Shown piece by piece: positions 1,350 to 64,000 of a stretch of 64,000 nucleotides of DNA. The DNA is taken from NCBI GenBank assembly GCA_963750475.1, contig CAVVQQ010000003.1, positions 513,191 to 577,190 on the forward strand. The letters run 5' to 3'. The translations under genes and the position numbers were made by a program. The notes beneath the pieces are model-generated. The model was not told the origin of the DNA, did no database searches, and worked only from the letters and a program-made list of their open reading frames with translations. Source of the DNA: an uncultured Acidobacteriota bacterium. Its GTDB lineage: Bacteria; Acidobacteriota; Vicinamibacteria; Vicinamibacterales; 2-12-FULL-66-21. Every line of letters starts with the position of its first letter. The first letter of the stretch is position 1.

Positions 1350-1354
1350 TACGA

Positions 1355-6967: not shown

Positions 6968-7052
6968 GACAGGAGCCAGTTCCCAGTCGCCAGTGGCCAG
7001 TCGCCAGTGGCCAGTCGCCAGTCGCCAGTCGCCAGTCCCAGTCGCCGGTTCC
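6968..7052. repeat. Tandem heptamer array (CCAGTCG / CCAGTGG / CCAGTTC), about 11 units, single orientation
   Basis: ccagttc ccagtcg ccagtgg ccagtcg ccagtgg ccagtcg x3 and so on. It starts 4 nt after the dctA stop and ends about 18 nt before the stop of the convergent gene at 7070. Confidence 0.9.
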
Positions 7053-7069
7053 GAGTTCGCGAGCGGATG

Positions 7070-26715: not shown

Positions 26716-26872
26716 CGGCTTCAGGCTTCCCGCTTCCCGCTTCCCGCTTCCCGCTGAAGCCAGCAGCCAGTAACCAGTAACCGGTAACCGGTAACCAGAT
26801 AGCTGGAAGCTGGCAGCTGGCAGCTGGAAGCTGGCAACTGGCAACTGGCAACTGGCCCCTGGCCTCTCTTAG
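26716..26872. repeat. Composite heptamer array (GCTTCCC x4 inside a GGCTTCAG/CTGAAGCC stem; CCAGTAA/CCGGTAA x4; CTGGAAG/CTGGCAG/CTGGCAA x9)
   Basis: Read directly. It starts immediately after the SDR stop codon (taa 26713-26715) and ends 17 nt before the symporter ATG. Confidence 0.9.
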
Positions 26873-26889
26873 CTGATAGCTTTATACCC

Positions 26890-28222
26890 ATGCTGCAGTC
26901 GCTCGCCGACGCGCTCTTCATGCCGTGGGTCGTCACGGTGCTCCTTGGCACCGGCCTCTTTCTGACCCTGCGCCTCGGCGTCGTCCAGGTCCGCCGCTTC
27001 GGCGACGCCATTCGCGTCGCCTTCGTCCGCAGAGGCACCGGCACGACCGGCGCGGTGACGCCGTTCCAGGCCTTCATGACGGCGCTCGCCGCCTCGATCG
27101 GCACCGGCAACATCGCCGGCGTCGCCACCGCGATCGTCTCCGGCGGTCCCGGCGCGCTGTTCTGGATGTGGGTCTACGGCTTCGTCGCGATGGCGATCAA
27201 GTTCAGCGAGGCGGTCCTCGGCGTCACCTTCCGCGAGTCGCGCGCCGGCGTCGTCCTGTCCGGGCCGATGTACTACCTGCGCGACGGCCTGAAGTCGCCG
27301 TTCCTGGCCTGGCTCTTCGCGCTCGTCGCCGCGGTCGCCGCCCTCACGACCACCCCTTTCACCCAGCCGAATTCGATGGCCCTGGCGCTCTACAGCGTCG
27401 TCGGCATCCCGAAGATCGTCTCCGGCATCGTCATCGCCGTGATGACCTGGCTCGTGATCATCGGCGGGATCAAGGCGATTGCGAGCGCCGCCGAAAAGCT
27501 GTCGCCGCTGAAAGTCGGGCTGTATCTCGCCGGCGGCTTGATCGTGATCCTCGCCAACGTGACGAAGATTCCGGCGGTGCTCTCGCTGGTCTTCGAGAGC
27601 GCCTTCTCGATGCGATCGGCGGCCGGCGGCGGCATCGGACTGCTGGTCGCGATGCGCTACGGCATCGCCCGCGGCATCTACGCCAACGAGGCCGGCTACG
27701 GCACCGCCGCGGTCGCTTACGGCACCGCCCGGAGCGCGCAGCCCGCCCAGCAGGGGCTGAACGCGGTAATGGAGGTCTTCATCGTTTCGTTCGTGACCTC
27801 CACGATCAGCGCGATGACGCTGCTCCTGACCGGCGTCTGGCAGTCCGGCCTGACCAGCACGGCGGCGGTCGCGGCCGGCTTCAACAGCGTGATGCCGGTC
27901 TTCGGCGGCTACATCGTCGCCTTCTGCGCGTTCCTGTTCGGCTACACCACGCTCATCGGCTGGGCGTACTTCGGCGAGCAGTTCTTCGAGTACATCTTCG
28001 GCCGGAAGGTGACGACGCCGTACCGGTGGGCGTACTGCCTGCCTGATCCCGTTCGGCGCCGTCTCGAAGGTGACGACGGTGTGGGCGTGGGGCGATCTGA
28101 TGAACGCCCTGCAGGTGTTTCCGAATGTGATCGGCCTGATCGGCCTCAGCGGCATCGTCGCCGCGGCGTCGCGCGAGCGGCTTCTGCAGCCGGCGGCTGC
28201 GGACGACGCCCGCGGGGTCTGA
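26890..28222 (+). pseudogene. Alanine/glycine:cation symporter (AGCS family), one +1 frame change near 28040-28044
   Basis: FQAFMTALAASIGTGNIAGVATAI and GIYANEAGYGTA are AGCS signatures. After YRWAYCL the family C-terminus (LIPFGAVSKVTTVWAWGDLMNALQVFPNVIGLIGLSG...) continues in the +1 frame to a stop at 28220-28222. The 835-aa run-through ORF is an artefact. Confidence 0.85.
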
Positions 28223-28228
28223 GTCGGA

Positions 28229-29506
28229 ATGGCGCGGATCGTCTGCACCGCCTGGGGATCGCTCGGCGACCTGCATCCGTTCCTGGCCGTGGCGCTCGAA
28301 TTGAAGCGCCGCGGGCACGACCCGGTGGTCGCGACGCTGCCGTCGTGGCGCGACAACGTCGAGCGCGCCGGCGTCGAGTTCCGGCCGGTCAGGCCGGATG
28401 TGCCGGCGAGCGAGAGCGACGCGCGGGAACTGATTCGCAAGGTGCTCGACGCGAGGAGCGGCCCGCACTTCCTGTTCACCGGTCTCCTCGGACCGCAGAT
28501 GCGCGAGGCCTACGACGATACGCTGGCGGCCGCCGCGGGAGCGGATCTGCTCGTCTCCCACCAGCTGCCGCAGACGGCGCCGATCGTCGCCGAGCGGACC
28601 GGCATCCCGTGGGTGTCGGCGGTGCTCGCCCCGATGGGGTTCATCTCGGCGTGGGATCCGCCGACGCCGCCGGGAGCGCCGGCGCTGCGCGCCGTCCTGG
28701 CGGTGCACCCCATTGCCGGCCGGGCGTTCAGGCAGATCGTGCGCGTCGTCAGCGACAGGTGGATGGCGCCGATCTACCGCCTTCGCGCCGAGCTCGGCCT
28801 GGCGCGCGGCCAGCATCCGCTGTTCGAGGGGCAGCACTCGCCGGCGCGCGTGCTGGCCCTCTTCTCGCCGGTGCTCGGGGCGAAGCAGCGCGACTATCCG
28901 CCGCAGACCGTCGTCACCGGCTTCCCGTTCTACGACGCGGCGCCGTCGCGCCCGGCCGACCCCGGCTTGACGACGTTTCTCGATGGCGGGGAGCCGCCGA
29001 TCGTGTTCACGCTCGGTTCGTCGGCGGTGTGGGTGGCGGACGATTTCTACGAGGTCAGCATCGCGGCGGCGAACGCGCTCGGGCGGCGGGCGCTGCTTCT
29101 CGTCGGCGAGGATCCGGCCCCGCTCCGCGCGAGGGTGCCGCCCGGCATCGGCGTGTTCGACTACGCGCCGCATGCGCTGGTCATGCCCCGCGCATCCGTG
29201 ATCGTTCATCAGGGCGGGGTGGGCACCACCGCCCAGGCGCTGCGCGCCGGCCGTCCCAGCCTGGTCGTCCCCTTCGGACAGGACCAGCCCGACAATGCCA
29301 GGCGCGTCACCCGGCTCGGGGTGGCGCGGACGATTTCGCGGGGTCATTATCGCGTCGACCGGGTGGTTGCGGAGCTGACGCGGCTGATGGCGCCTGATTA
29401 CGCTGCCCGGGCGGCGGCGGTAGGGGAGCGGATCAGGTCCGAGGACGGCGCCGCCCGGGCCGCGGACGAGATCGAGCAGGTGCTCGACGGCCGTTTCGCC
29501 TCTTGA
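28229..29506 (+). CDS. GT1-family glycosyltransferase (UDP-glycosyltransferase / MGT-like)
   Basis: 425 aa. The N-terminus is GSLGDLHPFLAVALELKRRGH. The C-terminal donor-binding motif is HQGGVGTTAQALRAGRPSLVVPFGQDQPDNA. Confidence 0.8.
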   Translation: MARIVCTAWGSLGDLHPFLAVALELKRRGHDPVVATLPSWRDNVERAGVEFRPVRPDVPASESDARELIRKVLDARSGPHFLFTGLLGPQMREAYDDTLAAAAGADLLVSHQLPQTAPIVAERTGIPWVSAVLAPMGFISAWDPPTPPGAPALRAVLAVHPIAGRAFRQIVRVVSDRWMAPIYRLRAELGLARGQHPLFEGQHSPARVLALFSPVLGAKQRDYPPQTVVTGFPFYDAAPSRPADPGLTTFLDGGEPPIVFTLGSSAVWVADDFYEVSIAAANALGRRALLLVGEDPAPLRARVPPGIGVFDYAPHALVMPRASVIVHQGGVGTTAQALRAGRPSLVVPFGQDQPDNARRVTRLGVARTISRGHYRVDRVVAELTRLMAPDYAARAAAVGERIRSEDGAARAADEIEQVLDGRFAS

Positions 29507-29564: not shown

Positions 29565-32142
29565 ATGGCGCAAGAGACCCTTCCCGTCGTTACCGGAGAA
29601 AAGGACCGCTCCCTCCAGGAGGCGCTGACCCGGCTGACCGCGTCCCGCGGCCCGGTGAGCGATCCGGCGGATCCGATCGTCACGGCGGCGCATCGCCTGC
29701 CGGCGATTGCAGCGTCGTTCGCCCCCTATCCTGAAGGGACCGACCCGCGGCTGCGGAGCGCGCTGGCGGCGCGGGGCGTCGAGCAGCTCTACACGCATCA
29801 GGCCGAAGCGTTCGGCCACGTCGCTCGGCGGCCGCAACGTCGTCACCATCACGCCGACCGCTTCGGGCAAGACGCTCTGCTACAACGCGCCGGTGCTGAA
29901 CGCGATCCTGCAGGATCCGTCGACCCGCGCGCTGTATCTGTTTCCCGACCAAGGCGCTGGCGCAGGATCAGCTCGCCGAGCTGCACGCGCTGTCGGAGCT
30001 CGTCAGCGAGCGACACCGACGTCGAGATCGGCGTCTTCACCTACGACGGCGACACGCCGTCGGATGCGCGGCGCGCGATCCGCGGCAAGGCCCACGTCGT
30101 GCTCAGCAATCCCGACATGCTGCACTCGGGGATCCTGCCGCACCATCCGCGCTGGGCGAAGCTGTTCGAGAACCTGCGCTTCGTCGTCATCGACGAGCTG
30201 CACGCCTATCGCGGCGTGTTCGGCAGCCACCTCGCGCAACATCCTGCGCCGGCTGCAGCGGATCTGCCGGCACTACGGGTCCGATCCGGTCTTCATCTGC
30301 TCGTCGGCGACGATCGCCAATCCGCGCGAGCTGGCCGAGGGGCTGACCGGGCGCCCGTTCGAGCTGGTCGAGAAGAGCGGCGCGCCGCGCGGCGAGAAGT
30401 TCTTCCTCTTCGTCAACCCGCCGGTCGTCAACGCGCAGCTCGGCATCCGCCGCTCGTACCTGGCCGAGGCGCGGCGGGTCGCGCTCGAGTTCCTGAAGCA
30501 CAACCTGCAGCTGATCCTCTTCGCGCAGAGCCGGCTGGCGGTCGAGATCCTGACGACGTATCTGAAGGATGCCTTCCACGGCCCGCCGGGCGCGGCCGAC
30601 GTCATCCGCGGCTATCGCGGCGGCTACCTGCCGAACCGCCGCCGCGAGATCGAGCGCGGGCTGCGCGACGGGCTGGTGCGCGCGGTGGTCTCGACCAACG
30701 CGCTCGAGCTCGGCATCGACATCGGCGCGCTCGACGTGTCGGTGATGGCCGGCTACCCGGGAACGATTGCCGCGACCTGGCAGCGCGCCGGCCGCGCCGG
30801 GCGCCGCGACGACGCGATCGGCGGCGGTGCTGGTGCGCCAGCAGCGCGCCGATCGATCAGTTCATCGTCCGCAACCCGTCGTATTTCTTCGACGCCATCG
30901 CCCGAGCACGCGCTGATCAATCCCGACAACCTGCACATCCTGCTCGACCACGTGAAGTGCGCGGCGTTCGAGCTGCCGTTCACGAGACGACGAGACAGTT
31001 CGGCGTCGCGAGGCGCCGCGACGAGGTCGACATTCAGGCGGTGCTCGGCGTCCTCGCCGAGGAGGGCTTCGTCCATCAGGCCGACGGCCAGTGGAACTGG
31101 ACCAACGAGTCGTACCCGGCCGACGCGGTCAGCCTGCGGTCGGTGTCGTCCGACAACTTCGTCGATCGTCGACACCACGCACGGCGAGCGGGTCATCGGC
31201 GAGACCGACTTCACCAGCGGCCCGTCGACGCTGCACGAGAAGGCGATCTACATCGTCGAAGGGCGCTGTTCCAGGTCGAGCGGCTCGACTTCGACGGCCG
31301 CAAGGCCTACGTGCGCGCGGTCGACTGCGACTACTACACCGACGCGATCACCTACACGAAGGTCACGATCCTCGACACGTTCGAGACGGGTCGCCAGCTC
31401 GCAGCTTCCAGCTCCCAGCTCACCGCTGACGACGACGAGCTGCCAGCTCCCAGCTCCCAGCTGCCGGCTGACGACGCAGAGCTCCCGGCCCTCGGCAGCT
31501 CGAGCTTCAGCGGCACTCCCCGGCGATCTCGAGCCGGCGGGCGTATCCGGCCCCGGCGCGATCCGCTCGCACGGCGAGGTCCACGTCGTCTCGCGCGTCG
31601 TCGGCTTCAAGAAGATCAAGTTCTACACCAACGAGAACGTCGGCTCGGGCGAGCTCGATCTGCCCGAGCAGCAGATGCACACCTCGTCGTACTGGCTGAC
31701 GATTCCGTCGGCGGTGATGGCGGCGCTGCCGTTTGCCGGCGACGATCGCCGCGACGGCGTCGTCGGCCTGGCGTTCGCGATGAAGAACGTCGCGCAGCTG
31801 CTGCTGATGTGCGACGGCCACGACATCGGCCTGTCGGTGGACGGCGGCGCGCTCGAGCGGTCGGCGCGGACCGGCGGCATCGGCGGCGTGCCCGACGCGC
31901 TCGCGACCGAGCCGAACGTCTTCATCTACGACAACTATCCCGGGCGGCATCGGCTTCAGCCGGCCGCTGTTCGAGATGCACGCGCCGCTGCTGGCGCGGA
32001 CGCGCGAGCTGATTGCCGGCTGCCCGTGCGAGTCCGGCTGCCCGTCGTGCGTCGGGCCCGAGGGCAACACCGGGCCGCACGCCAAGACAGGTGGCGCTCG
32101 CGCATCCTCGACGCGCTCGACTCGCCGCGGAGGCCGCCTGAC
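29565..32142 (+). pseudogene. DEAD/DEAH helicase with C-terminal DUF1998 zinc domain (MrfA/YprA-like), more than 10 frame changes as assembled
   Basis: Pieces alternate between the frames of ORFs 29565 and 29707. They are: LYTHQAEAF; NVVTITPTASGKTLCYNAPVL; VVIDELHAYRGVFGSHLA; ICSSATIANP; STNALELGIDIGALD...WQRAGRAGRR; DCDYYTDAITYTKV; and GCPCESGCPSCVGPEGN (the DUF1998 Cys cluster). The end coordinate is approximate. Confidence 0.8.
31394..31512. repeat. Heptamer array embedded in the helicase reading frame (17 units in constant 7-nt phase)
   Basis: ccagctc gcagctt ccagctc ccagctc accgctg acgacga cgagctg ccagctc ccagctc ccagctg ccggctg acgacgc agagctc and so on. This is the same unit family as the intergenic arrays. 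It lies between the DUF1998 segments ILDTFE and HGEVHVVSRV. Confidence 0.85.
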
Positions 32143-33569
32143 GTGGACCTCTCGTCGCGGCTGCGGGCGATCGTCCGGCGGGAATCCGGGAAGCCGGCCG
32201 GGGCGCCGCTCCGCGAGCTCACCTACGAGCCCGACAGCGGCGGCTACGAGGCGACGATCGGACCTCGGGCGGGTGAGTGCGACTGCTCGGCGGACGCTGT
32301 CACCGAGACCGCGTTCGGCCCGTGCCTCGTCATCGACCGGCGCTACGAGGCCGATCGCTGGCACGGAGCGATCCGCATCGGCGACTGCGATCGCGAGGAT
32401 GGCGATGCGCTCGGCATCCTCGATCCGTCGCTGCGGGCGCTGCGCGGCCGGCGCGGCGGGGAGCGAGGCTGGGGGCAGCGCGCGCCGCTTTCCGCGCACC
32501 GTGTTCATCGACCTCGAGACCACCGGCCTGAGCGGCGGCGCCGGCACGCTGGCGTTCCTGGTCGGCTGCGGCTACTTCGATCTCGGCGCCTTCCAGGTCC
32601 GCCAGTTCCTGCTCACCAGCCACGCCGGCGAGCGCGCGCTGCTGGCGGCGGTGGCCGACTTCTTCGCCGGCTGCGATCTGATCGTCACTTACAACGGCAA
32701 GACGTTCGACGTGCCGGTGATGGAGACGCGCTGGGTGTTCCATCGGCATGCGGATGCCCGCTGGGCGGACGTGCCGCACTTCGACATGCTCCACCCGGCG
32801 CGGCGGCTGTGGCGATCGCGCGCCCGGGTCCGGCGGCGAAATCGAGGAGGCCGGCTGCCGCCTGTCAACGCTCGAGCGGACGCTGTTCGGCGTCATGCGG
32901 GTCGGCGACGTTCCCGGCTTCGAAATCCCGGCGCGCTTCTTCAACTTCCTGCGCAGCGGCGATCCGCGTCCGCTCGAGCCGGTGCTCGAGCACAACCGCC
33001 TCGATCTCGTGTCGCTGGCGGCCGTGACGGCGCGCGCGCCTGCGGCTGGCGCGCGACGGGCACCACGCCTGCCGCGACGAGGCCGAAGCGCTGGCGCTCG
33101 GCCGCGTCTACGAACGGGCCGGTGCGCTCGACCGGGCGGAATGTTGCTACCGGCGGCGGCCGATTCGGCGACCGCGGAGGTGAGGGGAGAGGCGCTCTAC
33201 AGGCTTGGCCTGCGGCGGCGGCGCGAGCGCCGGTTCGAAGAGGCGGCGGCGGCATGGCGGGCGATCTGTCGAGCTGACCGAGCCGCGCCATGTGCGGCGG
33301 CTGGCGCGGCTTGGCGACCTGCGCCAGTTCGCGGTCGAAGCGCTGGCGATTCATCACGAGCACCGCCAGCGGGATCTCTGACGGCGCGCGCGAACTGGCG
33401 ATGTTCGCGCTGCAGGAGGCGAGCCGGCGGCGCGGGCGCTCGGGATGCGCCACCGGCTGGCGCGCTCGACGGAAGATCAGCGAGAGGGTGGAACGGGGAG
33501 GGGCAGCCGGGAGACCGGGACGCCGGGCGCACCCCGGCAAAAACAGACGCCCAGCTCTTTTCGAGCTGA
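32143..33569 (+). pseudogene. RNase H-like/DnaQ-like exonuclease with TPR-like tail (MrfB/YprB-like), several frame changes; boundaries approximate
   Basis: RTVFIDLETTGLSGGAGTLAFLVGCGYF...LIVTYNGKTFDVPVMETRW...HFDMLHPARRLW is the YprB-type exonuclease core. The N-terminal LSSRLRAIV...GPCLVIDRRYEADRWHG and the C-terminal repeats are spread over other frames. Confidence 0.65.
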
Positions 33570-33999: not shown

Positions 34000-34966
34000 C
34001 TACTCCAAGTCGACGCTCCGTTCCCAGCGGTGCTGCCTGAGCTCAGCCATGAGCGTTTCCGGCAGCCGCCTGCCGTCGCTGGCGGCGATGTTCTCGCTCG
34101 ACGTGGCGGAGTTTGCGCATGCCCGGGATTACGGTCGTCACGGCCGGGTGCTGAAGGATGTGCCGCAGCGCCAGTTCGGGGAGCGTCATCCCTTCCGGCA
34201 CGACCGGCTTGAGCCGTCGACGCGCTCGAGCGTCGGCGTGAGCTTCTCGGGCGTGAAGTAGAAATTGCGGAAGTCCCCTTCGGGCCAGCGTGAGTCGGCC
34301 GTCAGCGTGCCGGTCAGGCTGCCCTCGTCGAAGGGAACGCGGGCGATGACGGCGATGTTCTTTTCGCGGCAGGCCGGGAAGAGCTCGTCTTCCGGGCTCT
34401 GGTCGAAGACGTTGTAGACGACCTGGACGGCGTCGATGAGGCCGGTGTCGAGCGCGCGGAGGACGTTCTCCGGCTGCCAGCGGTTGACGCTGATGCCGAA
34501 CGCCTTGACCAGCCCTTCGTCCTTCAGCGCCCGAGGCGGCTTTCTGCCAGCGGTCGTCGTCCGCCCAGGCGTCGCTCCAGACATGGAACTGCTGGAGGTC
34601 GATGGTCGAGACGCCCATGTTGGCGAGGCTCTTCTCGGTGTACTCGCGGATGTAGTCGGGCGGATAAACGTCGTCCAGCGGGTACTCGGGGCGGGCCGGC
34701 CACTTGCGGTTCTTCGGCGGGATCTTGGTGGCGGCATAGAGCCGCGTCCCGGCATGGCGCTTGAGCGCCTCGCCGAGCAGCACTTCGCTGTGGCCGTCGC
34801 CGTAGGCCCAGGCGGTGTCGAAGAAGTTGCAGCCGCGGGCGATCGCGTGGTCGAGCGACTTCAGCGACTCCTCGTCGTCGCTGCCGGTCCACCCGGCCAT
34901 GCCCCACATGCCGTAGCCGATTTCGGAAACGTCCCACCCGGTACCGCCAAAGGGTCTGTAACGCAT
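34000..34966 (-). pseudogene. Aldo/keto reductase, about 3 frame changes as assembled
   Basis: MRYRPFGGTGWDVSEIGYGMWGM...CNFFDTAWAYGDGHSE is in the frame of ORF 34043-34966. LKDEGLVKAFGISVNRWQPENV...IAVIARVPFDEGSLTG is in the frame of ORF 34186-34755. The C-terminus IPGMRK...NIAASDGRRLPETLMAELRQHRWERS reaches a TAG at 34000-34002. Confidence 0.8.
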
Positions 34967-34974
34967 CCCTGAAT

Positions 34975-35130
34975 CATATCCTCTCGCTACCGGCTTCCCG
35001 CTGTCCCGCTTCCCGCTTCCCGCTTCCCGCTACGCTGTCCCGCTCCCACGCTGTCCGCTGCCACGCTGCCACGCTGCCACGCTGCTCCGCTGCCACGCTG
35101 CTACACGGGCACGCTGCTCCGCCACGGTCG
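34975..35130. repeat. Tandem array drifting from 7-nt (CGCTTCC / GCTGTCC) to 8-nt units (ACGCTGCC / ACGCTGCT)
   Basis: Read directly: gcttccc gctgtcc cgcttcc x3 ... acgctgcc acgctgcc acgctgcc acgctgct ccgctgcc acgctgct. It begins about 10-20 nt upstream of the AKR start codon (34966, minus strand). Confidence 0.9.
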
Positions 35131-43700: not shown

Positions 43701-43901
43701 GTGACCGCCGTGCGCCGCCGGGCTGCGATTAGCCGCATGCGCTTCGGTGCGCTGGCCGTGCTGGCCATCCTGGTCGCAGCGCCGGGCATTCACCTCTTCG
43801 AACTGTGGCTGGCCCCCTCGGCCGCGTTCTATCTAAGTCACGTTATGGCGCTGGCTCTGCTGGCCGTGGTGATCTGGCGCTGGCGCGCTTCACGCCCGTA
43901 G
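43701..43901 (+). CDS. Small membrane protein, hypothetical
   Basis: 66 aa with two hydrophobic helices. A heptamer array starts right after its stop codon. Confidence 0.35.
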   Translation: MTAVRRRAAISRMRFGALAVLAILVAAPGIHLFELWLAPSAAFYLSHVMALALLAVVIWRWRASRP

Positions 43902-43965
43902 CCAGTAACGGTAGCCGGTAACCAGTAGCCAGTAACGACCGGTAGCCTGTAATCAGTAACGCTGA
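43902..43965. repeat. Tandem heptamer array (AGCCAGT / AACCAGT / AGCCGGT), about 9 units
   Basis: gccagta acggtag ccggtaa ccagtag ccagtaa cgaccggtag cctgtaa tcagtaa. It abuts the stop codon at 43899-43901. Confidence 0.85.
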
Positions 43966-44080
43966 CGCTCAGGCCGTCGGGCGTCGCGTGGCGGCGGCCT
44001 CCCTGGAGATTGTGGACTGGCAAGCACCGAGCGCGTGTTCCGCAGACCAGACGACGGATGTACGAAGGCGAGGCAAGACA

Positions 44081-44522
44081 ATGAAAGTCGACGTATCGAG
44101 CGTCGTCGTCATCCAGCGGCCGCCAGGCGAAGTGGCCGAATACGCCGCGAATCCCGACAATGCTCCAGTCTGGTACGTCAACATCAAGGCGGTCGAATGG
44201 AAAACGCCGCCGCCGCTGGCGGTCGGCTCGCGGCTGGCGTTCGTCGCGCAGTTTCTCGGGCGGCGGATGGCGTACACCTACGAGGTCGTGGAGTGGCTAT
44301 CCGGCGAGCGCTTCGTGATGCGAACCGCCGAAGGGCCGTTCCCGATGGAAACCACCTACACCTGGGAAGCGGCGCCCGACGCCGCCACCCGGATGACGCT
44401 GCGCAATCGAGGCGAGGCGCGCGGGTTTTCGATGCTGGTCGCGCCGTTCCTGGCAGGCGCGGTCCGGCGCGCCAACCGGAAGGATTCTCGCGGCCCTCAA
44501 GAGACTTCTCGAGAGCCGCTGA
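44081..44522 (+). pseudogene. SRPBCC-family (polyketide cyclase/dehydrase-like) protein, one extra base near 44487
   Basis: Starts at MKVDVSSVVVIQRPPGEVAEYAANPDNAPVWY...ERFVMRTAEGPFPMETTYTWE. After ANRKD the +1 frame gives LAALKRLLESR and then a stop. Confidence 0.7.
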
Positions 44523-44561
44523 ACACAGCACGGACCCAATTCACCGATCCGGGTTCTAACC

Positions 44562-45260
44562 ATGGTGACGATGGGGCCGCGCCTTTTCATTGCCTGCTCG
44601 TGCGTCGTTGCCTGGGCCCTTGCGGCTGGCGCCCAGGCGCCTGAGAACGTGGCCCGCCGCCGCGTGCCGTTTCGCAGTCCTGAAGTCGGGTTGCCGCTGA
44701 CCCCGTACAGCCTCGGCAGCGCCATGGCGGAGGTCGCCTGGGCCGCCAACGTCCCGATCGGTTACGAAGCGCTGTCGGATGAATCGTGGCAGCCGGCCCC
44801 GTCGGAGGCAAGCCTCAGGACGGCGGGTCTCACCCTCGGCGAAATCCTCGACGACATCGTGACAAGGGAGCCACGCTATCAGTGGGCCGTGGACGACGCC
44901 GTCGTGCATCTGCGCCCGAGGACTGCCATCGAGGATCCAGGGAATATACTGAATCGCCCGCTCGACGAGTTTGTCCTGAACGACGCAACGTTGCCGGAGG
45001 CGCTTCGGGAGATTCGAATCGCCCTGCGGCCTGAGCTGAGGCATGGCGGTACTCTGGGCTCGGGCCCGGGGCCGTCGGCACTCGGCCGCCGCCGGTTCAG
45101 TGTCAGCCTGGGGCGGACGACACTGCTGCAGGCGCTCGATGCCATCGTCAAAGCGCACGGCGCGTCGAGCTGGCGTGTGACCTACGAGACGGATCGTGGC
45201 GTTCCATATCCGGATCGCATCAGCTTCGAGACGTTCGACGGATGGGGACAAACCTCGTAG
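44562..45260 (+). CDS. Secreted hypothetical protein
   Basis: 232-aa ORF with a signal peptide (LFIACSCVVAWALAAGAQA). No family recognised. Confidence 0.5.
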   Translation: MVTMGPRLFIACSCVVAWALAAGAQAPENVARRRVPFRSPEVGLPLTPYSLGSAMAEVAWAANVPIGYEALSDESWQPAPSEASLRTAGLTLGEILDDIVTREPRYQWAVDDAVVHLRPRTAIEDPGNILNRPLDEFVLNDATLPEALREIRIALRPELRHGGTLGSGPGPSALGRRRFSVSLGRTTLLQALDAIVKAHGASSWRVTYETDRGVPYPDRISFETFDGWGQTS

Positions 45261-45367
45261 CGCCGCGTCGTGGACTCCGACGCACGACGACGCCGGAGTT
45301 CGGACAAGGGAGGTGACGCCTGACGCCTGTTGATGATCTCGAGGCCGTTCGCGCCGAACTGGAAGCG

Positions 45368-45874
45368 GTGTCGACTCGCGCCAGCCGCCTTCGCCGCCTG
45401 CCGGACGCGACGCTCAGACTCCGCCCTCCCGCGGGCGGGTGGTCGGCGCTCGAGTGCGTCGCGCATCTCAATGTCACGTCCGACGCCTTCCTGCCGGTGT
45501 TGTCCGCGGGACTCGGCCGCGCCCCTGCTTCACAAAGCACGGCGCCGATGCGGTTGGGACTGCTGGCGAACCTCTTCCTCTGGTACATGAATCCTCCGTA
45601 TCGCATCGGGTCGAGGACGCCGGTCCGATTCGAACCGGCGCCGACAGAGGACGCCGCGGCGGTGTTCGACGGCTTCGAGGCCCGTCAGGCCCGCGTCGTG
45701 GCGCTTCTTCAGCAGGCGCAGGGCCGCCGGCTCGACCAGGTCAAGGTCGTATCCCCTTTCGACGCGCGGTTCTCCTATAACCTCTTCGCGGCATTCCGGC
45801 TGTTCGCCGCCCACGAGCGGCGGCACCTCTGGCAGGCCGAAAGGGCCGCGGCGGCCGGGGCGCCGGCCACCTGA
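45368..45874 (+). CDS. DinB-superfamily protein
   Basis: GGWSALECVAHLNVTSDAFLP and the C-terminal FAAHERRHLWQAERA match the DinB_2 metal-binding His pattern. The start is uncertain (GTG at 45368). Confidence 0.7.
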   Translation: MSTRASRLRRLPDATLRLRPPAGGWSALECVAHLNVTSDAFLPVLSAGLGRAPASQSTAPMRLGLLANLFLWYMNPPYRIGSRTPVRFEPAPTEDAAAVFDGFEARQARVVALLQQAQGRRLDQVKVVSPFDARFSYNLFAAFRLFAAHERRHLWQAERAAAAGAPAT

Positions 45875-45939
45875 CCTGAGCCTGCCGTGCGGCGGATTCT
45901 CCGTGATACCCTCCAGCTGAAATCGGAGGCGCAGTACCC

Positions 45940-46700
45940 ATGGCCAGTATCACAGCGACCAGCACCGCAACCCGTTCGCTGACGCGCCCCGCCGGCACCC
46001 ACGACCGCCTGTTCTACGGCGGCATGGCCGTCGCCCTGGGGCTGGCGGTGCTCGCCGGGTTTGCGCCGACCTACTACCTGCGCTTCCTCCACGGCGGCCC
46101 GACTGCGACACTCAGCGGCGGACCGTTCACCCGACTCGTCCACATCCACGGGGCGCTCTTCACGACCTGGATGCTGTTCTTCATCGTCCAGACGGCGCTC
46201 GTCGCCAGCCGCCGGGTGGCGATCCACCGACGGCTCGGTATCGCGGGCGCCGTGCTCGCCGCCGCCATGGTCGCGGCGGGGACGTCCCTCGCAATCGCCA
46301 CCGCGGCCCGCGGCTCGTCACCTCCGGGATGACGCCCCTCGCCTTCCTGGTCATTCCTCTCTTCGACATGATCATGTTCGCGACGTTCATCACCACCGCT
46401 CTCGTCAAACGGCGCGACAAGGAAGCGCACAAGCGCCTGATGCTGCTCGCCTACGTCAGCATCGTCACCGCCGCCCTGGCACGGCTTCCCGGCATCCTTC
46501 CGCTGGGGCCTCCGGCGTTCTTCGGCCTGTCACTCCTGTTCGTGGTCGCCGGCATGGTTTACGACCGCGTGTCGCGCGGGCGGATCCACCGCGTCTACCT
46601 GTGGGGCGGCGCGCTCATCGTCGTGTCGATCCCGCTGCGCCTGGCGATTTCGTCGACGGCCGCCTGGCGGGCACTCGCGGGGATGCTAATCGGGAGCTGA
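45940..46700 (+). pseudogene. 7-TM membrane protein, read as one gene with a frame change at about 46325, or as two ATGA-overlapping ORFs (45940-46332, 46329-46700)
   Basis: LVHIHGALFTTWMLFFIVQTALVASRRVAIHRRLG in the first ORF and KEAHKRLMLLAYVSIV in the second look like halves of one membrane-protein family. The junction reads ccgggATGAcg. Confidence 0.5.
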
Positions 46701-46702
46701 TA

Positions 46703-47104
46703 CAGCTTCCGGCTTCCGGCTTCCCGCTGTTGCCAGTAGCCAGTTGCCAGTTGCCAGTAGCCGGTAGCCAGTAGCCAGTACCACGGCACTGGCAGAACTG
46801 ACCTTACGGAACTCTGCGCAGAACTGAACCTCGGAGAACCGAACCCCGCAGAACCCTGCGGAACCCTGCACAACCCGGCAGAACGCATATCCTGCAGAAC
46901 CCTGTGGAACCCCGCAGAACTCGGTGGAACCCTTTTGAACCCCGCAGAACCCTGCAGAACAGAACCCTGCAGAACTGAACCCTGCAGAACAGAACCCTGC
47001 AGAACAGAACCTTGTAGAACCGAACCTTGGAGAACCGAACCTTGGAGAACCGAACCCTGCAGAACCCTGTGGAACCCCGAAGAACCCCGTAGAACCCGTA
47101 GAAT
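46703..47104. repeat. 400-nt composite tandem-repeat tract (heptamers CGGCTTC / GCCAGTN, then about 15-nt units GAACCCTGCAGAACA)
   Basis: cagcttc cggcttc cggcttc...tgccagt agccagt tgccagt..., then agaaccctgcagaac repeated about 8 times with variants (cgaaccttggagaac), decaying to cccgtagaac. It spans from 3 nt after the upstream stop to 6 nt before the M28 ATG. Confidence 0.9.
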
Positions 47105-47110
47105 GGATGG

Positions 47111-48715
47111 ATGCGCTTTCTGTCCACGGCTTCGGTCGTTGCCTGCCTCACGGTGTCCGTCGCCGCCCAGCCTGGCGAGAAGATCGATCTCCAGACGATT
47201 GCGAAGATTCGCGGCGAGGGGATGAATCACTCGCAGGTGATGGATCATCTCAGCTGGATGACGGATGTCTACGGCCCGCGTCTGACCGGCAGCCCGGCGA
47301 TTCTCCAGGCCAGCGACTGGGCGATGGGGAGGATGAAGGACTGGGGGCTCGCCAACGTCCATCGCGAGACGTTCGCGTTCGGCAAAGGCTGGGCGCTGGT
47401 GCGCTTCAACGCGCAGATGATCGAGCCGCAGGTCCAGCCGATTATCGGCTACCCGGCGCCGTGGACCGGCAGCACGAAAGGCACGGTCGTGGCCCCGGTG
47501 GTGCGCGTCGAGATCGCCGCCGAGTCGGACTTCGAGAGGTATCGCGGCAAGCTCGCCGGTGCGATCGTGCTGCAGCAGGCCGCGCGTGCGGTGCCGCTGC
47601 TCGAGGGTCCGGTCGTGCACCATGCCGCGCCGGGTGACGCACCGGTCATCACCGCCGCCGCCCCGATTGCCGCACCGTTGCCGGACGCCGCCGCGCGCCT
47701 TGCCGCCCAGCGCGCGCTGGTTGCCAAAACCGCGCAGTTCTTCAAGGACGAAGGGGTGGTCGCGATCTTCAATCGCGGCGCCGACGCGGTGCGCGTGCCC
47801 GCCGGCGTCGGGCTGACGGTCGAGGTCCAGCGGACCGACGGCGGCACAATCTTCCCGACTTCCACCGGCGCCCGCGGCGCGGATGCCGGCACCGCCGTCC
47901 CGATCGTCACGATTGCGGTCGAGCACTACAACCGCATGATCCGCGTGCTGGCGAAGGGCCTGCCGGTGAAGGTCGAACTGACGCTCGAGACGAAGCTCTT
48001 CGACGAGTCGTCGCCGAACGGCTTCAACACGATCGCCGAAATCCCCGGCACGGATCCGGCGCTCAAGGACGAGGTCGTCATCATCGGCGCGCACTTCGAT
48101 TCCCTGCAGGCCGGCACCGGCGCCACCGACAATGCCGCCGGCTCGGCGGCGATGATGGAAGCGATGCGCATCCTCAAGGCGATCGGTGCCAGACCGCGGC
48201 GGACGATCCGGCTGGCGCTGTGGGGTGGAGAAGAGCAGGGGCTGCTCGGGTCGAAGGCCTACGTCAGGGATCACTTCGCTGATCCGGCCGACATGCAGCC
48301 CAAGCCGGACCACGCGCGGGTCACCGCCTACTTCAACTCCGACAACGGCGCCGGGCGCGTCCGCGGCATCTGGACGCAGGGCAACACCGCCGCCGCGGCG
48401 GTCTTCGAGCAGTGGATGAAGCCGCTTGCCGATCTCGGCGTCACCGCGCTCGGCGCGCGCTCGGTCGGCTCGACCGATCACGTCTCCTTCGACGCCGTCG
48501 GCCTGCCCGGCTTCCAGTTCATGGTCGACCGCCTCGAGTACAACTCCCGCACCCACCACTCGAACATGGACGTCTACGACCGCGTCCCGAAAGACGACCT
48601 GGTCCAGCAGGCCGTCGTTTCGGCGGTGTTCGCCTACGAGGCCGCGATGCGCGACGACAAGCTGCCGCGCAAGCCGCTGCCGCCACCGCCCGCGCCGCGC
48701 TCGACCGCACGGTAG
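47111..48715 (+). CDS. M28-family aminopeptidase (secreted)
   Basis: 534-aa intact ORF with a signal peptide. NTIAEIPGTDPALKDEVVIIGAHFDS...GATDNAAGSAAMMEAMR...LWGGEEQGLLGS are the M28 zinc-ligand motifs. Confidence 0.85.
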   Translation: MRFLSTASVVACLTVSVAAQPGEKIDLQTIAKIRGEGMNHSQVMDHLSWMTDVYGPRLTGSPAILQASDWAMGRMKDWGLANVHRETFAFGKGWALVRFNAQMIEPQVQPIIGYPAPWTGSTKGTVVAPVVRVEIAAESDFERYRGKLAGAIVLQQAARAVPLLEGPVVHHAAPGDAPVITAAAPIAAPLPDAAARLAAQRALVAKTAQFFKDEGVVAIFNRGADAVRVPAGVGLTVEVQRTDGGTIFPTSTGARGADAGTAVPIVTIAVEHYNRMIRVLAKGLPVKVELTLETKLFDESSPNGFNTIAEIPGTDPALKDEVVIIGAHFDSLQAGTGATDNAAGSAAMMEAMRILKAIGARPRRTIRLALWGGEEQGLLGSKAYVRDHFADPADMQPKPDHARVTAYFNSDNGAGRVRGIWTQGNTAAAAVFEQWMKPLADLGVTALGARSVGSTDHVSFDAVGLPGFQFMVDRLEYNSRTHHSNMDVYDRVPKDDLVQQAVVSAVFAYEAAMRDDKLPRKPLPPPPAPRSTAR

Positions 48716-48756
48716 CGGCTGGGCCCGTCGCAGCTAATCTGAGATCAGGCGCTCAG

Positions 48757-50193
48757 TCACTCTCCACGCATCAGGCGGGCTGGTTCGATGCGGAGCGCGC
48801 GGCGCAGCGGTACCGCGGCCGCCAGGATCAGGGCCAGCGAAATGACGCCAACACTGAGGGCAACATTCGTCGTCGACGCTGGAACCAGTCCTGCCTGCGC
48901 AGCGGCGGCGAGGCGCGTTGCCGATACACTTAGCGTCATTCCGACGGCCGTGGCAGCCATCCACCAGCGCAGCACCGACGTCGTCACCGCCCTGCGGGCC
49001 TGCGCCGGCGTGGCGCCGATCGCCTGGCGAATCGCGATCTCCCTCGACCGACATGCGACAAGATGGGATGTGGCCGCAAAGGCTCCAAGCGCCACCAATA
49101 GGATTGTTACTCCCGCAAACACAGCCCCGACCGCCGCGTAAGCGGCAATCTGTTCGACCTCCTGAAATCGCGCGCTGCCGATGGTCCTGGGGGTGCCCAC
49201 TGACAGCCCCGGCACGCTTCGCTCGACGAACTCCTGCAGCGGCTGTGCGCGGATTGCACCGCCGCCGGTCCGATTTGTCGCCTTCATCAACAACACGAGA
49301 TCGTGCGTGCTCGATGGCGTCCCCGGCCTGTCGGCAACCCTCGCGAAATGAACATAAACGACCGGCAGTTCCTCTGCATCCCAGATGCTCCGCCTGACGT
49401 CACGCGCAATCCCGATGATGGTTGCGCTGCTCTCGAGGCTAGGGACGCGGACGGACTTGCCGATCGCCGCGTCCGTTGCGCCAAACCGTTGCTTCGCCAG
49501 CGAGGCATATTTATTTTGCGGTTGGCCGAGCACCTGCACCTGGAGGATGCTGACGACCGTGCGGCCTCGGGCATCCTTCGCGAACACTGGCCCCGTCGTC
49601 AGGGGCATGAAGAGGTCGACGTCAGTGCTGGGAAACGCGTGTCGATCCCGCACGACGCCGACGACGCGGCAATTCTGACCTTCGACGGCCAGGTCCTGAT
49701 TCACGGCGGCTGCGTCGCCGCCGAAGATACGCAGAGCAAATCGCTGCGTCAGAACCGCTGCACACGGCGTCACGTTCTCGTCTTGCAGTCGCATGACGCG
49801 TCCGGCAATCGGCGTGACGCCGAGCGTGCTGAAAAAGTTGCCGCTGACGCGTGCGGCGACGCCGCGGGCTGTCCCTCGTGCCCCCGTCGAGAAGGAGACC
49901 TCAGATCGCTGATACGCCGCAAGGGACGCAAAGGCCTCCCCATAGTTCCGCCATCCTGCATAGTCTGGGGCCGTGATGGTGTCGCGGCCGCGGGACGCGA
50001 CCCATCCTGTGCGGACCGGCTGAACCAGGGCCGGCCCGTTCGGGAACACAGCGGCCTGGCGATTCAGCGCGACGCCGACCGCCGACATTGTCATCCCCAG
50101 CGCCATCGCTAGACCGAGAGTCGACACCACCGCCACGGCCACACCTGGTCGTCGCCGCCACGGTCGGAACGCGAGCCTCCAGGCTTGTGGCAT
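48757..50193 (-). CDS. FtsX/MacB-type ABC transporter permease (ADOP-like, single module), no ATPase partner in the window
   Basis: 478 aa. Layout is N-terminal TM (GVAVAVVSTLGLAMALGM), a large periplasmic domain, and a C-terminal FtsX 3-TM bundle (REIAIRQAIGATPAQARRAV). Confidence 0.75.
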   Translation of the reverse strand: MPQAWRLAFRPWRRRPGVAVAVVSTLGLAMALGMTMSAVGVALNRQAAVFPNGPALVQPVRTGWVASRGRDTITAPDYAGWRNYGEAFASLAAYQRSEVSFSTGARGTARGVAARVSGNFFSTLGVTPIAGRVMRLQDENVTPCAAVLTQRFALRIFGGDAAAVNQDLAVEGQNCRVVGVVRDRHAFPSTDVDLFMPLTTGPVFAKDARGRTVVSILQVQVLGQPQNKYASLAKQRFGATDAAIGKSVRVPSLESSATIIGIARDVRRSIWDAEELPVVYVHFARVADRPGTPSSTHDLVLLMKATNRTGGGAIRAQPLQEFVERSVPGLSVGTPRTIGSARFQEVEQIAAYAAVGAVFAGVTILLVALGAFAATSHLVACRSREIAIRQAIGATPAQARRAVTTSVLRWWMAATAVGMTLSVSATRLAAAAQAGLVPASTTNVALSVGVISLALILAAAVPLRRALRIEPARLMRGE

Positions 50194-54630: not shown

Positions 54631-55617
54631 CTACGCCGCGCCGACGGTCTCGCGGACGCGTTTCGCGGCGCGGCCGACTGCCAGCGACCCGGTGAAGATC
54701 GCCTTGACCGGGACGACGCCGCCGAGCCGGTAGTCGCCGACTGCGGCCAGGCCGACCGAGGCCATGCAGCCGCACTGGCTGCAGTCCGGGTTGCCGCCGA
54801 ACTGGCAGGGCGCAATCGGCTGCTTCAGGTCGGCCGAAATGCACTCGGTCGTCTTCGAAAAAATGCACGCGTCCGGATTCGGCGGCGGGTCCAGGTAGCC
54901 GCGGACCACCGACGGCCGCATGTCGCTCAGCTTCGGCTCGTCCCGGTAGAGCGCGGTGATCTCCTCGACGAACAGCGCGCGGTCCTCGGCGCGCAGGCGC
55001 TCGGCCGACTCCTCGCCGATCTGCGGCGTGTAGAGGCTGAACCAGATCCGCCGGACGTCGGGATTCGCCGCCCAGAAGCGTGTGAACTCGGTGACGTAGC
55101 CGGGCCGCGCCTGCTGCCGCGTCAGCGTGCAGTGCACCGTCACCTGCTGTCCGGCGATGTGCTTGAGGATGCGGTCGTAGGTCGCGGGGGTGCGGCGGAC
55201 GTCGTGCTCCGGCTGGAGGCCGTCGATCGAGACGACCACCTGGAGTCTCGGGATGTGCGCCCACGCCGCCGGGATCGGCCGCACCGCGCTGGTCACGACC
55301 TGCGTGTGCACGCCCATCGCCGACAGCTGCGGCAGGATGACATCGAGCTCGCGGAAGCGCACGAGCGGTTCGCCGCCGACGATCGACAGGTGCAGGGGCT
55401 TGCGCGCCCGCACCAGATCGAGCATGCCGTCAATCAGCTCCTGGCCCTTGCGGTCCGAGAGCTGACGCAAAACGACGCCGCCGCCGAGATGCTCATCGCC
55501 GTAGGCGTAGCATCCCGGGCAGCGCAGCGGACATTCACGCGTGATTTCGATGGAGAGGTTCGGGCGATATCCGGAAAGGATCCGCCCCCAGGCTTTGACG
55601 ACGTCGTGTTTTTCCAA
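54631..55617 (-). CDS. Radical SAM protein with C-terminal Cys-rich motif
   Basis: 328 aa. Has the CX3CX2C motif in ITRECPLRCPGCYAY and the GGEPL motif (SIVGGEPLV). The C-terminal APCQFGGNPDCSQCGCMAS may bind an auxiliary cluster. The subfamily is not recognised. Confidence 0.75.
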   Translation of the reverse strand: MEKHDVVKAWGRILSGYRPNLSIEITRECPLRCPGCYAYGDEHLGGGVVLRQLSDRKGQELIDGMLDLVRARKPLHLSIVGGEPLVRFRELDVILPQLSAMGVHTQVVTSAVRPIPAAWAHIPRLQVVVSIDGLQPEHDVRRTPATYDRILKHIAGQQVTVHCTLTRQQARPGYVTEFTRFWAANPDVRRIWFSLYTPQIGEESAERLRAEDRALFVEEITALYRDEPKLSDMRPSVVRGYLDPPPNPDACIFSKTTECISADLKQPIAPCQFGGNPDCSQCGCMASVGLAAVGDYRLGGVVPVKAIFTGSLAVGRAAKRVRETVGAA

Positions 55618-60301: not shown

Positions 60302-61557
<1,256 letters not shown>

Positions 61558-61650
61558 GGTCGTTGTCAGCTTCCAGCTTCCAGCGTCCGGCTTCCCGCTG
61601 GCACCCGTGACCGGAAACGCTGGCAGCTGGGAGCTGGCAGCGGTGAGCGC
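61558..61650. repeat. Inverted heptamer arrays forming a ~24-bp hairpin between clpP and clpX
   Basis: The reverse complement of cagcttccagcttccagcg (61567-61585) matches cgctggcagctgggagctg (61618-61636) at 17 of 19 positions. tccgg and ccgga extend the stem. The loop is about 20 nt. Confidence 0.85.
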
Positions 61651-62252
61651 CTACGCCCGCTTGCGGATGACATCATCAATAATACCGTATTCCTTGCCCT
61701 GGTCGGGCCGCCATGATGTAGTCGCGCTCCGTATCGTCCTGGATGCGCTTCAGCGGCTGGCCGGTGTGCTGGGCCAGGATCTGGTTGAGGCGCTCGCGCG
61801 TGCGCAGCAGCTCGCGGGCATGGATGTCGATATCGGTCGTCTGGCCGCCCAGGCCCTGCACCCACGGCTGGTGGATCAGGATCCGGGAGTTCGGCAGCGA
61901 GAACCGCTTGCCCTTGGCGCCCGGCCGCCAGCAGCACCGCCGCCACCGACGCCGCCTGGCCGATGCAGTAGGTCTGCACGTCCGGCTTGATGAACTGCAT
62001 CGTGTCGTAGATCGCCATGCCGGCCGTGATCACCCCGCCCGGGCTGTTGATGTACAGCAGGATGTCGCGGTCCGGGTCCTCGGCCTCGAGGAACAGCATC
62101 TGGGCGATGACCAGGTTGGCGACGTTGTCGTCGATCGGCGTGCCGATGAAGATGATGCTGTCCTTCAGCAGGCGCGAAAAGATGTCGTAGGCGCGTTCGC
62201 CGCGGTTGGTCTGCTCGACCACCATCGGGATGAGCTGCATGCGTTCAGACAT
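61651..62252 (-). pseudogene. clpP: ATP-dependent Clp protease proteolytic subunit ClpP, frame changes as assembled
   Basis: [53 protein letters not shown]...[21 protein letters not shown]...YCIGQAAS, then LIHQP...[11 protein letters not shown] in another frame. An extra base in the GGG run at 61704-61706 precedes the C-terminus [17 protein letters not shown]. Confidence 0.9.
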
Positions 62253-63726: not shown

Positions 63727-63747
63727 TGAGCTTCTGATGAGATCGAG

Positions 63748-63831
63748 TGCGAAAGGGGGGAGTCGAACCCCCACGGCCTTTCGGCCACCGGATCCTAAGT
63801 CCGGCGCGTCTGCCAGTTCCGCCACTTTCGC
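63748..63831 (-). tRNA. tRNA-Leu (anticodon UAG), class II with long variable arm
   Basis: The minus strand reads GCGAAAG-TG-GCGGAACTGGCAGACGC-G-CCGGA-CTTAGGA-TCCGG-TGGCCGAAAGGCCGT-GGGGG-TTCGACT-CCCCC-CTTTCGC-A. The acceptor, anticodon and T arms all pair. No CCA is encoded. Confidence 0.9.
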
Positions 63832-63849
63832 GCGGGGACCGGCAACATT

Positions 63850-63934
63850 TTAGCGTATCACGCGGGAAGCCGGCAGCGGGAAGCGGGAAGCGGGAAGCTG
63901 GAAGCGGGAAGCTGGCAGCTGGAAGCCGGAAGCT
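63850..63934. repeat. Tandem heptamer array (GCGGGAA / GCTGGAA / GCTGGCA / GCCGGAA), about 11 units
   Basis: gcgggaa gccggca gcgggaa x3 gctggaa gcgggaa gctggca gctggaa gccggaa. It lies between the stop codon of the partial gene at 63935 and the 5' side of tRNA-Leu. Confidence 0.9.
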
Positions 63935-64000
63935 CTATTTTGCCCCCAGCTCGACGCTGTAAAGCGTCTTGCCGGCGACATCGCGCAGCTGGACGGTGAG
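63935..64000 (-). CDS. 3' end of an unidentified gene (partial, continues beyond the window)
   Basis: The open minus-strand frame reads ...LTVQLRDVAGKTLYSVELGAK and ends at a TAG (63935-63937). Confidence 0.35.
   Translation of the reverse strand, partial: LTVQLRDVAGKTLYSVELGAK

Follow-up and report, generated by a model that had tools for sequence, protein, structure and literature searches.

Among phase-variable repeats, the TA repeats of hif and the homopolymers of Neisseria porA and opc are located between unique -35 and -10 hexamers. Among the intergenic minisatellites of high-GC bacteria, mycobacterial interspersed repetitive unit-variable number tandem repeats (MIRU-VNTR) have units of 40-100 bp, which often overlap stop or start signals, and are mostly neutral markers. 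In Haemophilus influenzae, the (ATCTTTC)n tracts of hmw1A and hmw2A are transcribed within the 5' untranslated region (5'UTR) from a conserved promoter located upstream (PMC12721329). Heptanucleotides are the most abundant long simple-sequence repeats (SSRs) in many bacteria, where they are mostly intergenic, lie nearer the 5' neighbouring open reading frame (ORF) and vary between close relatives; known arrays include those of Xanthomonas (GGGAATC), Nostoc/Anabaena (GGGGAYT), Calothrix PCC 7601 and Beggiatoaceae (TAACTGA) (PMC4679880; PMC4692102). Leaderless genes are marked by a TANNNT motif about 12 bp upstream of the start and are estimated to account for 9.7-19.4% of the genes in three Acidobacteria genomes (PMC3160421). 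Here, we analysed a composite tandem-repeat tract of about 400 nt upstream of a gene for an M28 aminopeptidase, in a stretch of 64,000 nt (hereafter the window; GC 68%) whose closest relatives are Acidobacteriota metagenome-assembled genomes of Vicinamibacteria type. With moderate confidence, we propose that this tract is a tolerated, fast-evolving spacer ending at the peptidase's own leaderless promoter, and not a switch.

The repeat DNA spans 46703-47104, between the stop codon of a membrane-protein gene (TGA, 46698-46700) and the ATG of the peptidase gene at 47111. An earlier note on this DNA had described such a 400-nt tract as filling the whole spacer and as non-coding. Both points agree with the sequence and with Tandem Repeats Finder (TRF), and no coding signal was detected in the tract. 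It consists of two adjoining arrays, first heptamers (46703-46790; CNGCTTC, followed by NGCCAGT) and then a GAAC-anchored array of 10-nt (GAACCYYGYR) and 5-nt (GAACN) units, which combine into a 15-mer (5 + 10). The blocks are as follows.

46703-46790, + strand: heptamer block, with CAGCTTC, CGGCTTC twice, CCGCTGT, then (T/A)GCC(A/G)GT seven times
46791-46840, + strand: transition segment with irregular GAAC anchor spacing, which holds AGAACTGACC
46820-46889, + strand: 70-nt higher-order copy, 84% identical to 47031-47100
46841-46944, + strand: distal block of degenerate 10-nt units GAACCYYGYR (period 10, 69% matches)
46945-47051, + strand: young homogeneous 15-mer block, GAACN + GAACCCTGCA, about 7 units (the TRF array of 8.1 copies extends to 47065)
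47052-47098, + strand: promoter-proximal 10-nt units GAACCCTGCA, GAACCCTGTG, GAACCCCGAA, GAACCCCGTA and GAACCCG

TRF reported these arrays.

46705-46728: GCTTCCG, 3.4 copies
46732-46780: GCCAGTA, 7.0 copies, 90% matches
46841-46960: 10-mer GAACCCTGCA, 12.4 copies, 69% matches
46945-47065: 15-mer CAGAACCCTGCAGAA, 8.1 copies, 92% matches, score 172
47052-47103: 10-mer GAACCCCGTA, 5.3 copies

The period order given in the earlier note (heptamers, about eight 15-mers, final 10-mers) therefore stands for the elements it names but is incomplete, since 10-mers also precede the 15-mer block. The tract contains 33 GAAC anchors, spaced by 10 nt in 19 cases and by 5 nt in nine. GAAC is invariant across all units, and the remaining positions differ mostly by transitions. 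Allowing two mismatches or fewer, GAACCCTGCAGAAC matches the window 19 times, 18 times inside the tract and once elsewhere, whereas shuffles expect 0.24 matches per window. Runs of perfect units comprise at most four identical 10-mers and are separated by 5-nt units; the 15-mer block shows 92% matches and the other blocks 69-90%. The segment 46820-46889 copies the promoter-proximal block, and thus the tract grew at several scales.

At its 3' edge the tract runs directly into a -10 box, with the peptidase gene starting a few nucleotides further.

47099-47104, + strand: -10 box TAGAAT, the final repeat unit with a C-to-T change, its first T 12 nt before the ATG
47111-48715, + strand: M28 aminopeptidase, 534 aa (PF04389, 1.2e-35)

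The final unit of the tract is CCCGTAGAAT. The TAG of TAGAAT (47099) is also an in-frame stop that closes the frame upstream of the M28 ATG, and an upstream start codon is therefore excluded. Six nucleotides (GGATGG) separate the box from the ATG, too near the latter for a Shine-Dalgarno role. We placed the start codon in 162 orthologous M28 loci, and in about 20 orthologues (at least about 55% protein identity) TAnnAT is found 12-13 nt before the ATG (6-7 nt gap) without GGAGG, while distant orthologues (below about 50% identity) carry GGAGG in place of this pattern. From box to ATG the sequence reads TAAAATgggcgtATG in orthologue L001, TAGAATggacagATG in L002, TAAAATggcgtATG in L003, TAGAATggtcgtcATG in L161 and TAGAATggacggATG in L162. 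TAnnAT-N6/7-ATG is present too in L024, L081-L083, L017, L023, L097-L099, L018 and others, and further orthologues have TACAAT (L165, L174) or TAGAAT (L166) as box. Since the upstream genes and spacers of these orthologues are unrelated, the box belongs to the peptidase gene. In array-less orthologues, one unit (CAGAACCCA) is retained beside it.

The peptidase gene thus shows TANNNT at about 12 nt and lacks a Shine-Dalgarno sequence at -5 to -12. Because TAnnAT-N6-ATG is conserved, no leader is expected; the M28 mRNA is probably leaderless, with a predicted transcription start at or within 1-2 nt of A47111. The earlier note had placed promoter, 5'UTR and ribosome-binding site inside the repeat. 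This is supported for the promoter, as the -10 box is the last, mutated unit, but not for the 5'UTR and the ribosome-binding site, given the conserved TAnnAT 12-13 nt before the ATG without Shine-Dalgarno sequence. The gene resembles the described leaderless TANNNT genes (PMC3160421) in motif, distance to the ATG, absence of a Shine-Dalgarno sequence and a phylum that uses this mode, and differs from them by the tandem array upstream of the -10 box and by having no evident specific -35 element; its start is here predicted from sequence. The distribution of TANNNT offsets in the window has its maximum at 12-13 nt, with seven genes showing the pattern. The other six, with the first T of TAnnnT 12-13 nt before ATG or GTG, are located at 16036, 18897, 24185, 25024, 51206 and 53343. 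These are candidate leaderless genes and amount to about 13% of the genes in the window.

The same layout of stop codon, array and -10 box is common to the M28 locus and a second locus, tRNA-Leu(TAG) (63747-63936, - strand). Here, the stop codon TAG (63936-63934) is followed by a heptamer array (63862-63934), by TAAAAT (63852-63847) and by the 5' end of the tRNA at 63831. No TTGACA-like hexamer was found 16-18 nt upstream of either -10 box. At the peptidase gene, the expected -35 position is occupied by the promoter-proximal units at 47052-47098. A sigma-70 consensus scan returned nothing useful on the + strand; it missed TAGAAT because the -35 partner is absent. We infer that both promoters depend mainly on the -10 element.

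The most parsimonious mechanism for this layout starts from non-coding DNA consisting of two neighbouring arrays of types usual in this lineage. One, of heptamers, adjoins the end of the membrane-protein gene, and the other, GAAC-anchored with 10/5-nt units, extends to the M28 promoter. Both would grow and shrink through replication slippage and larger unequal duplications, a process that would account for the nesting of periods (5, 10, 15 and about 70/211 nt). Expansion would halt at selected sequence, with the stop codon as one limit and the -10 box as the other; as it would stop only there, the tract fills the whole space. The peptidase promoter would then be essentially TAGAAT (47099-47104), and transcription would begin with the A of the ATG or a neighbouring nucleotide, yielding an mRNA without 5'UTR or ribosome-binding site. 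As a periodic sequence ahead of the -10 box, the tract could gain or lose units while the promoter-proximal 30-40 bp and the distance from box to ATG stayed unchanged. With the promoter-proximal sequence constant, unit number is therefore expected to affect expression little or not at all.

These considerations bear on three other readings of the tract. A spacing switch, as in a contingency locus, does not fit a tract that is wholly upstream of the -10 box, has no unique -35 flanks and is periodic in sequence; with the -10 box as its end and no leader expected, the tract does not have the position typical of contingency loci. An adaptation specific to this locus is not supported in view of about ten similar arrays in the 64 kb, one of them before the tRNA-Leu promoter. 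Read-through from the membrane-protein gene is unlikely as the main route, because the -10 box is kept in orthologues with quite different upstream genes; as an additional route it is possible. Similar to phase-variable repeats, the tract consists of short tandem units, whose number can change by slippage, and precedes a gene that encodes an exported protein. Unlike hmw, hif, porA and opc, it is located upstream of the -10 box, its gene has an apparently leaderless mRNA, the units are imperfect and the arrays occur genome-wide. With MIRU-VNTR, whose copy number varies between strains, it shares tandem units that fill co-directional spacers, but the units measure only 5-15 nt.

Comparison with relatives indicates that the tract is old but labile, with only the unit beside the -10 box kept. 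L161 (81% protein identity) has the same membrane gene and a tract with the same block order, consisting of GCTTC/GCCAGT heptamers, the unique AGAACTGACC, about nine 10-mers and CATAGAATGGTCGTCATG. The AGAACTGACC segment is common to both genomes and establishes the homology of the two tracts. The L161 spacer has a length of 266 nt compared to 410 nt in the window and is devoid of the 15-mer block, which is peculiar to the genome of the window. In L162-L164, three assemblies of one species with an M28 protein 91% identical to that of L161, the same membrane gene is followed by a unique 221-nt spacer with a single unit (cccccagaacccaTAGAAT), and L001 has a different upstream gene and one unit (cccgcagaacccaTAAAAT). 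In L002 (86% identical), the peptidase gene follows a DinB-family gene, and the 8-mer GGTGCCRG, repeated 18 times at 3834-3977, fills the spacer; a different unit thus fills the gap up to the -10 box there.

The GAACC-unit family also forms arrays in two other nearby spacers of relatives, namely the rho/radical-SAM spacer (L161-L163, L169-L173) and the region after the radical-SAM stop codon (L165, L174). In the former, L162 and L163 are otherwise identical and exactly one 15-nt unit apart, a difference that comes from short-read assemblies in which collapse is possible. The array is identical among L169, L170 and L171 and likewise between L172 and L173, so that within species one of the three comparisons gives a 15-nt difference and two give none, whereas differences between the three species groups reach about 105 nt. 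Differences in unit number among relatives and assemblies thus show that the arrays change length, and the earlier claim that unit number is changeable holds for arrays of the GAAC family, both in the L161 spacer and in the L162/L163 sister array. The radical-SAM orthologue of the window (54634-55617) has no GAACC-type array. GAACC-type 10-nt arrays were located at 7300-7373 in L161, 7330-7500 in L162, 4500-4600 in L165, 2600-2645 in L174 and 2873-2921 in L082. In the first four of these, the GAACC strand is the same as at the peptidase gene, whatever the orientation of the neighbours, while L082 carries the complementary form, in front of a divergent gene whose ATG likewise follows a -10 box at a distance of 6 nt. 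Upstream of the radical-SAM (AslB-like) gene, a stretch of about 90 nt (L169 1410-1500, corresponding to L162 7246-7330 on the reverse strand) next to the variable array is highly conserved across the three species groups and may represent a leader or regulatory element. We also considered the 10-mer as a pure duplication of the M28 promoter, an idea weakened by the fact that relatives carry arrays of the same unit family in two further spacers.

The variable unit number raises the possibility that the tract acts as a rheostat or contingency locus, in which the number of 10/15-nt units tunes M28 expression, either through the length of curved or quadruplex-prone DNA near the -10 box or, should some transcripts begin further upstream, through the length or structure of an intercistronic leader as in hmw1A. 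Besides the variation within the GAAC family, the youngest block is 92% homogeneous and thus prone to slippage, and the heptamer number of hmw1A is known to grade expression (PMC12721329). Wedge-model calculations place the highest curvature of any 100-bp segment in the window at 47026-47125 and the 10-mer blocks within the most curved 0-3%, whereas the 15-mer block comes out straight; this result is indicative only, although a phased A-tract control behaved as expected. In addition, two quadruplex-type motifs are present.

46844-46876, - strand: G3-N7 quadruplex-type motif, complement of the 10-mers (regular expression only)
47065-47097, - strand: second G3-N7 quadruplex-type motif, located on the template strand immediately ahead of the -10 box (regular expression only)

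We nevertheless regard a rheostat as unlikely. Given the conserved leaderless layout, the tract lies neither between -35 and -10 elements nor in a 5'UTR, and its periodicity holds the promoter-proximal sequence constant. Orthologues work with zero or one unit, similar arrays occupy convergent-gene spacers without a promoter, and two of the three within-species comparisons of the sister array show no change. Moreover, M28 is a housekeeping-type secreted peptidase and would be atypical as a phase-variable surface antigen.

The heptamer part of the tract is a member of the known class of long intergenic simple-sequence repeats. Across the whole window, TRF found period-7 arrays at about ten sites, with nine non-redundant arrays.

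1-89: period-7 array
1359-1475: period-7 array, in the spacer 1350-1482
6975-7056: period-7 array
26725-26863: period-7 array, after the stop codon 26713-26715
31394-31483: period-7 array, inside a helicase ORF
34985-35122: period-7 array, on the opposite strand
43894-43961: period-7 array
46705-46780: period-7 array, in the M28 tract
61567-61648: period-7 array, in the clpP-clpX spacer
63862-63934: period-7 array, at tRNA-Leu

Every heptamer consensus reported for the window is a variant of CCAG(C/T)NN or CCGCTTN, and GCCAGTWGCCAGT (two mismatches or fewer) has 39 matches in the window against 1.6 expected, at seven array sites and two isolated positions. On a gene map based on GC content at third codon positions (GC3) with Pfam checks, six arrays begin within 3-13 nt of a gene end and extend across the spacer; most arrays of the family follow a stop codon at a distance of 3-10 nt. 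After the stop codon at 26713-26715, the order (CNGCTTC)n, CCGCTGA, (NGCCAGT)n is that of the start of the 46703 tract, and the same order of heptamer units is found in L161. Our comparison set of 164 fetched Acidobacteriota and Gemmatimonadota loci contains 40 arrays of period 7, compared with four of period 6 and ten of period 8; period 7 is over-represented among the periods that are not multiples of three, and the units vary by genome and often occur as inverted pairs. All four features of the heptanucleotide-SSR class are thus found, i.e., a predominance of period 7 among head-to-tail units of 5-11 nt, many arrays of one family, an intergenic position near an ORF end, and variation from relative to relative at a fixed position. 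As in the described heptanucleotide SSRs, one genome-specific unit family forms many arrays, some of them as inverted pairs. The differences are the acidobacterial host, other units, and the junction to a 10/5-nt array that reaches a -10 box. A literature search found no description of intergenic heptanucleotide arrays in Acidobacteriota.

The heptamer arrays are oriented. In at least seven cases, including the clpP-clpX spacer and L161, the C-rich form is on the sense strand right after the upstream stop codon; exceptions in polarity or location are 34985-35122, on the opposite strand, and 31394-31483, inside the helicase ORF. This orientation is one argument for a transcription-unit boundary, in which the tract or its heptamers would end or insulate upstream transcription through C-rich, G-poor Rho loading or through structure, leaving the peptidase promoter to act on its own. 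Over the whole tract C exceeds G (137 vs. 96), with a C/G ratio of 1.3-1.7 in the individual blocks, close to the 95th percentile of 78-nt windows, and a consensus scan found no intrinsic terminator on the + strand. Some arrays combine with an inverted copy into very stable hairpins. At 1350-1482 (- strand), the whole spacer between two co-directional genes consists of CCAGCTC/CCCGCTT heptamers followed by their inverted complement GAGCTGG/AAGCGGG, for which a single hairpin with a folding energy of -97 kcal/mol is predicted (z -8.7; 27% of the ensemble). Arrays with inverted copy are also seen, in weaker form, at 26731-26875 and in the clpP-clpX spacer (61558-61655).

The bias in the tract is, however, moderate and not extreme, and a C/G ratio of 2 is reached by no block of the tract but by 18 other + strand segments of the window. 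The heptamer block closes with a short hairpin-capable GCCAGT-N8-ACTGGC, yet its RNA fold is no better than that of shuffles (z -0.74). Furthermore, 34985-35122 and the rho/radical-SAM array have a G-rich sense strand, one array of the family is inside a helicase ORF, and L162 manages with a unique spacer. We assign a low probability to the boundary function. RNA structure of the whole tract was rejected as a candidate element: its z of -4.55 (+ strand) comes with a diffuse ensemble (minimum free energy frequency 0), and the pairing stems from CUGCAG palindromes within the units. A covariance-model scan of 46000-48000 with Rfam gave nothing at E <= 1.

Repetitive extragenic palindromic (REP) sequences and bacterial interspersed mosaic elements (BIMEs) are a further point of comparison, as the arrays are dispersed, lie at gene ends and in some cases form long hairpins (1350-1482). 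In contrast to REP/BIME, they consist of tandem heptamers instead of a single palindromic unit, and the M28 tract is non-palindromic. Upstream of the peptidase gene of L003 (74% identical), six 61-nt units with the hairpin CTTCCGGCTGAAGCCGGAAG are present (3000-3900), directly downstream of a gene assigned by eye to the REP-associated tyrosine transposase (RAYT) family; their hairpin arms resemble the window heptamer GGCTTCC. A REP/RAYT origin of the M28 tract, suggested by L003, was rejected, as no RAYT homologue was found in the window and no inverted repeats were found within the tract.

The GAAC core itself could be read as an array of binding sites, with GAAC(C) recognised by a response regulator of the OmpR/PhoB type or by a nucleoid-associated protein. 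OmpR/PhoB-type regulators bind direct repeats that are arranged head to tail at intervals of about 10-11 bp. The invariance of GAAC in 33 anchors with 19 spacings of 10 nt, the recurrence of this core in arrays of other species and loci, and the unit kept beside the -10 box in array-less orthologues are all in line with such sites. Against this stand the thirty-odd sites, far more than in known operators, the 5-nt insertions that disrupt helical phasing, the occurrence of arrays in convergent spacers without promoters and in either orientation relative to genes, and the lack of a regulator gene among the neighbours scanned (43988-50193). Binding sites are in our opinion a very unlikely explanation.

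The quality of the source assembly is relevant to the flanking genes and to the tract.

45940-46700, + strand: membrane-protein gene in two ORFs (45940-46332 and 46329-46700) with a 1-nt frameshift; weak DUF2306 match

The two ORFs encode 130 and 123 aa and overlap at ATGA (46329-46332), and the halves are 88 and 91% identical to one 253-aa protein of L161; the split reflects a pseudogene or, more likely, an assembly indel. The M28 gene is named carboxypeptidase Q in some source annotations, and the N-terminus of its product, judged by eye, reads like a hydrophobic signal peptide. Further frameshifted or truncated genes are found at 26890-29397, 29565-33027, 34043-34966 and 60672-62252. An ORF resembling an alanine/cation symporter (family guessed by eye from its N-terminus) turns into nonsense past about 390 aa, a DEAD/HRQ1-like helicase is split across two frames, an aldo-keto reductase covers just positions 1-116 of a profile with 291, and clpX and clpP also look frameshifted or truncated. 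These genes suggest a long-read assembly with indel errors. Single-base details of the units are uncertain because the assembly carries several frameshifts. That the tract as such is an artefact of an error-prone long-read assembly, as the many frameshifted genes might hint, is highly improbable and largely refuted by the same block order in the independently assembled L161, whose homologous tract corroborates the array, and by similar arrays in many independent assemblies. Two ORFs within the repeat, an antisense (VLQGS)n and a plus-strand (EPCRT)n frame, were rejected as genes. Both overlap the real gene in another frame, and with units of 5, 7 and 10 nt no reading frame can be maintained. 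The earlier note had rightly taken the antisense ORF, which is present but spurious, for a by-product. Spurious antisense ORFs are usual in high-GC genomes.

Several observations weigh against a tolerated spacer. The polarity of the heptamers, with the C-rich strand as sense strand after the stop codon, is unpredicted by pure neutrality. The promoter-proximal 10-mers form the most curved 100 bp in the wedge model and carry G3-N7 motifs on the template strand, and an effect of curved or quadruplex-type DNA on promoter strength is possible. The leaderless transcription start is itself inferred from sequence. The persistence of a composite tract at 81% protein identity together with an invariant GAAC could mean constraint or ongoing homogenisation. 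In addition, no second strain of the species was found, as a metagenome scan gave nothing above 65% identity and a protein search returned the source contig alone as a 100% match.

A more far-reaching view, which we consider rather improbable, is that the short arrays of Acidobacteriota and Gemmatimonadota are selected boundary modules of transcription units. Polar heptamers right behind the stop codon would serve 3'-end formation (by Rho loading, or by a hairpin with an inverted copy), a helically phased 10-nt array would supply curved or quadruplex-prone DNA in place of a -35 element at a leaderless promoter, and the number of units would set insulation and promoter strength. If true, such modules would amount to a lineage-wide, repeat-based organisation of intergenic regions.

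The additions of the tract to the known class of intergenic SSRs are modest, i.e., a 10/5-nt array adjoining a leaderless promoter and the polarity of the arrays. The over-representation of heptanucleotides, earlier described mainly in Xanthomonas, cyanobacteria, Burkholderia and Beggiatoaceae, is extended to soil Acidobacteriota. In practical terms, the arrays are likely break points or error sites in metagenome assemblies and could be used as strain-typing markers. For annotation, the M28 gene is one of a clade with a conserved, probably leaderless promoter of the -10-only type, and the repeat in front of it is a genome-wide habit rather than a dedicated switch. As the arrays reach the -10 boxes of both the peptidase and the tRNA-Leu gene, promoters in this genome would need no specific -35 sequence.

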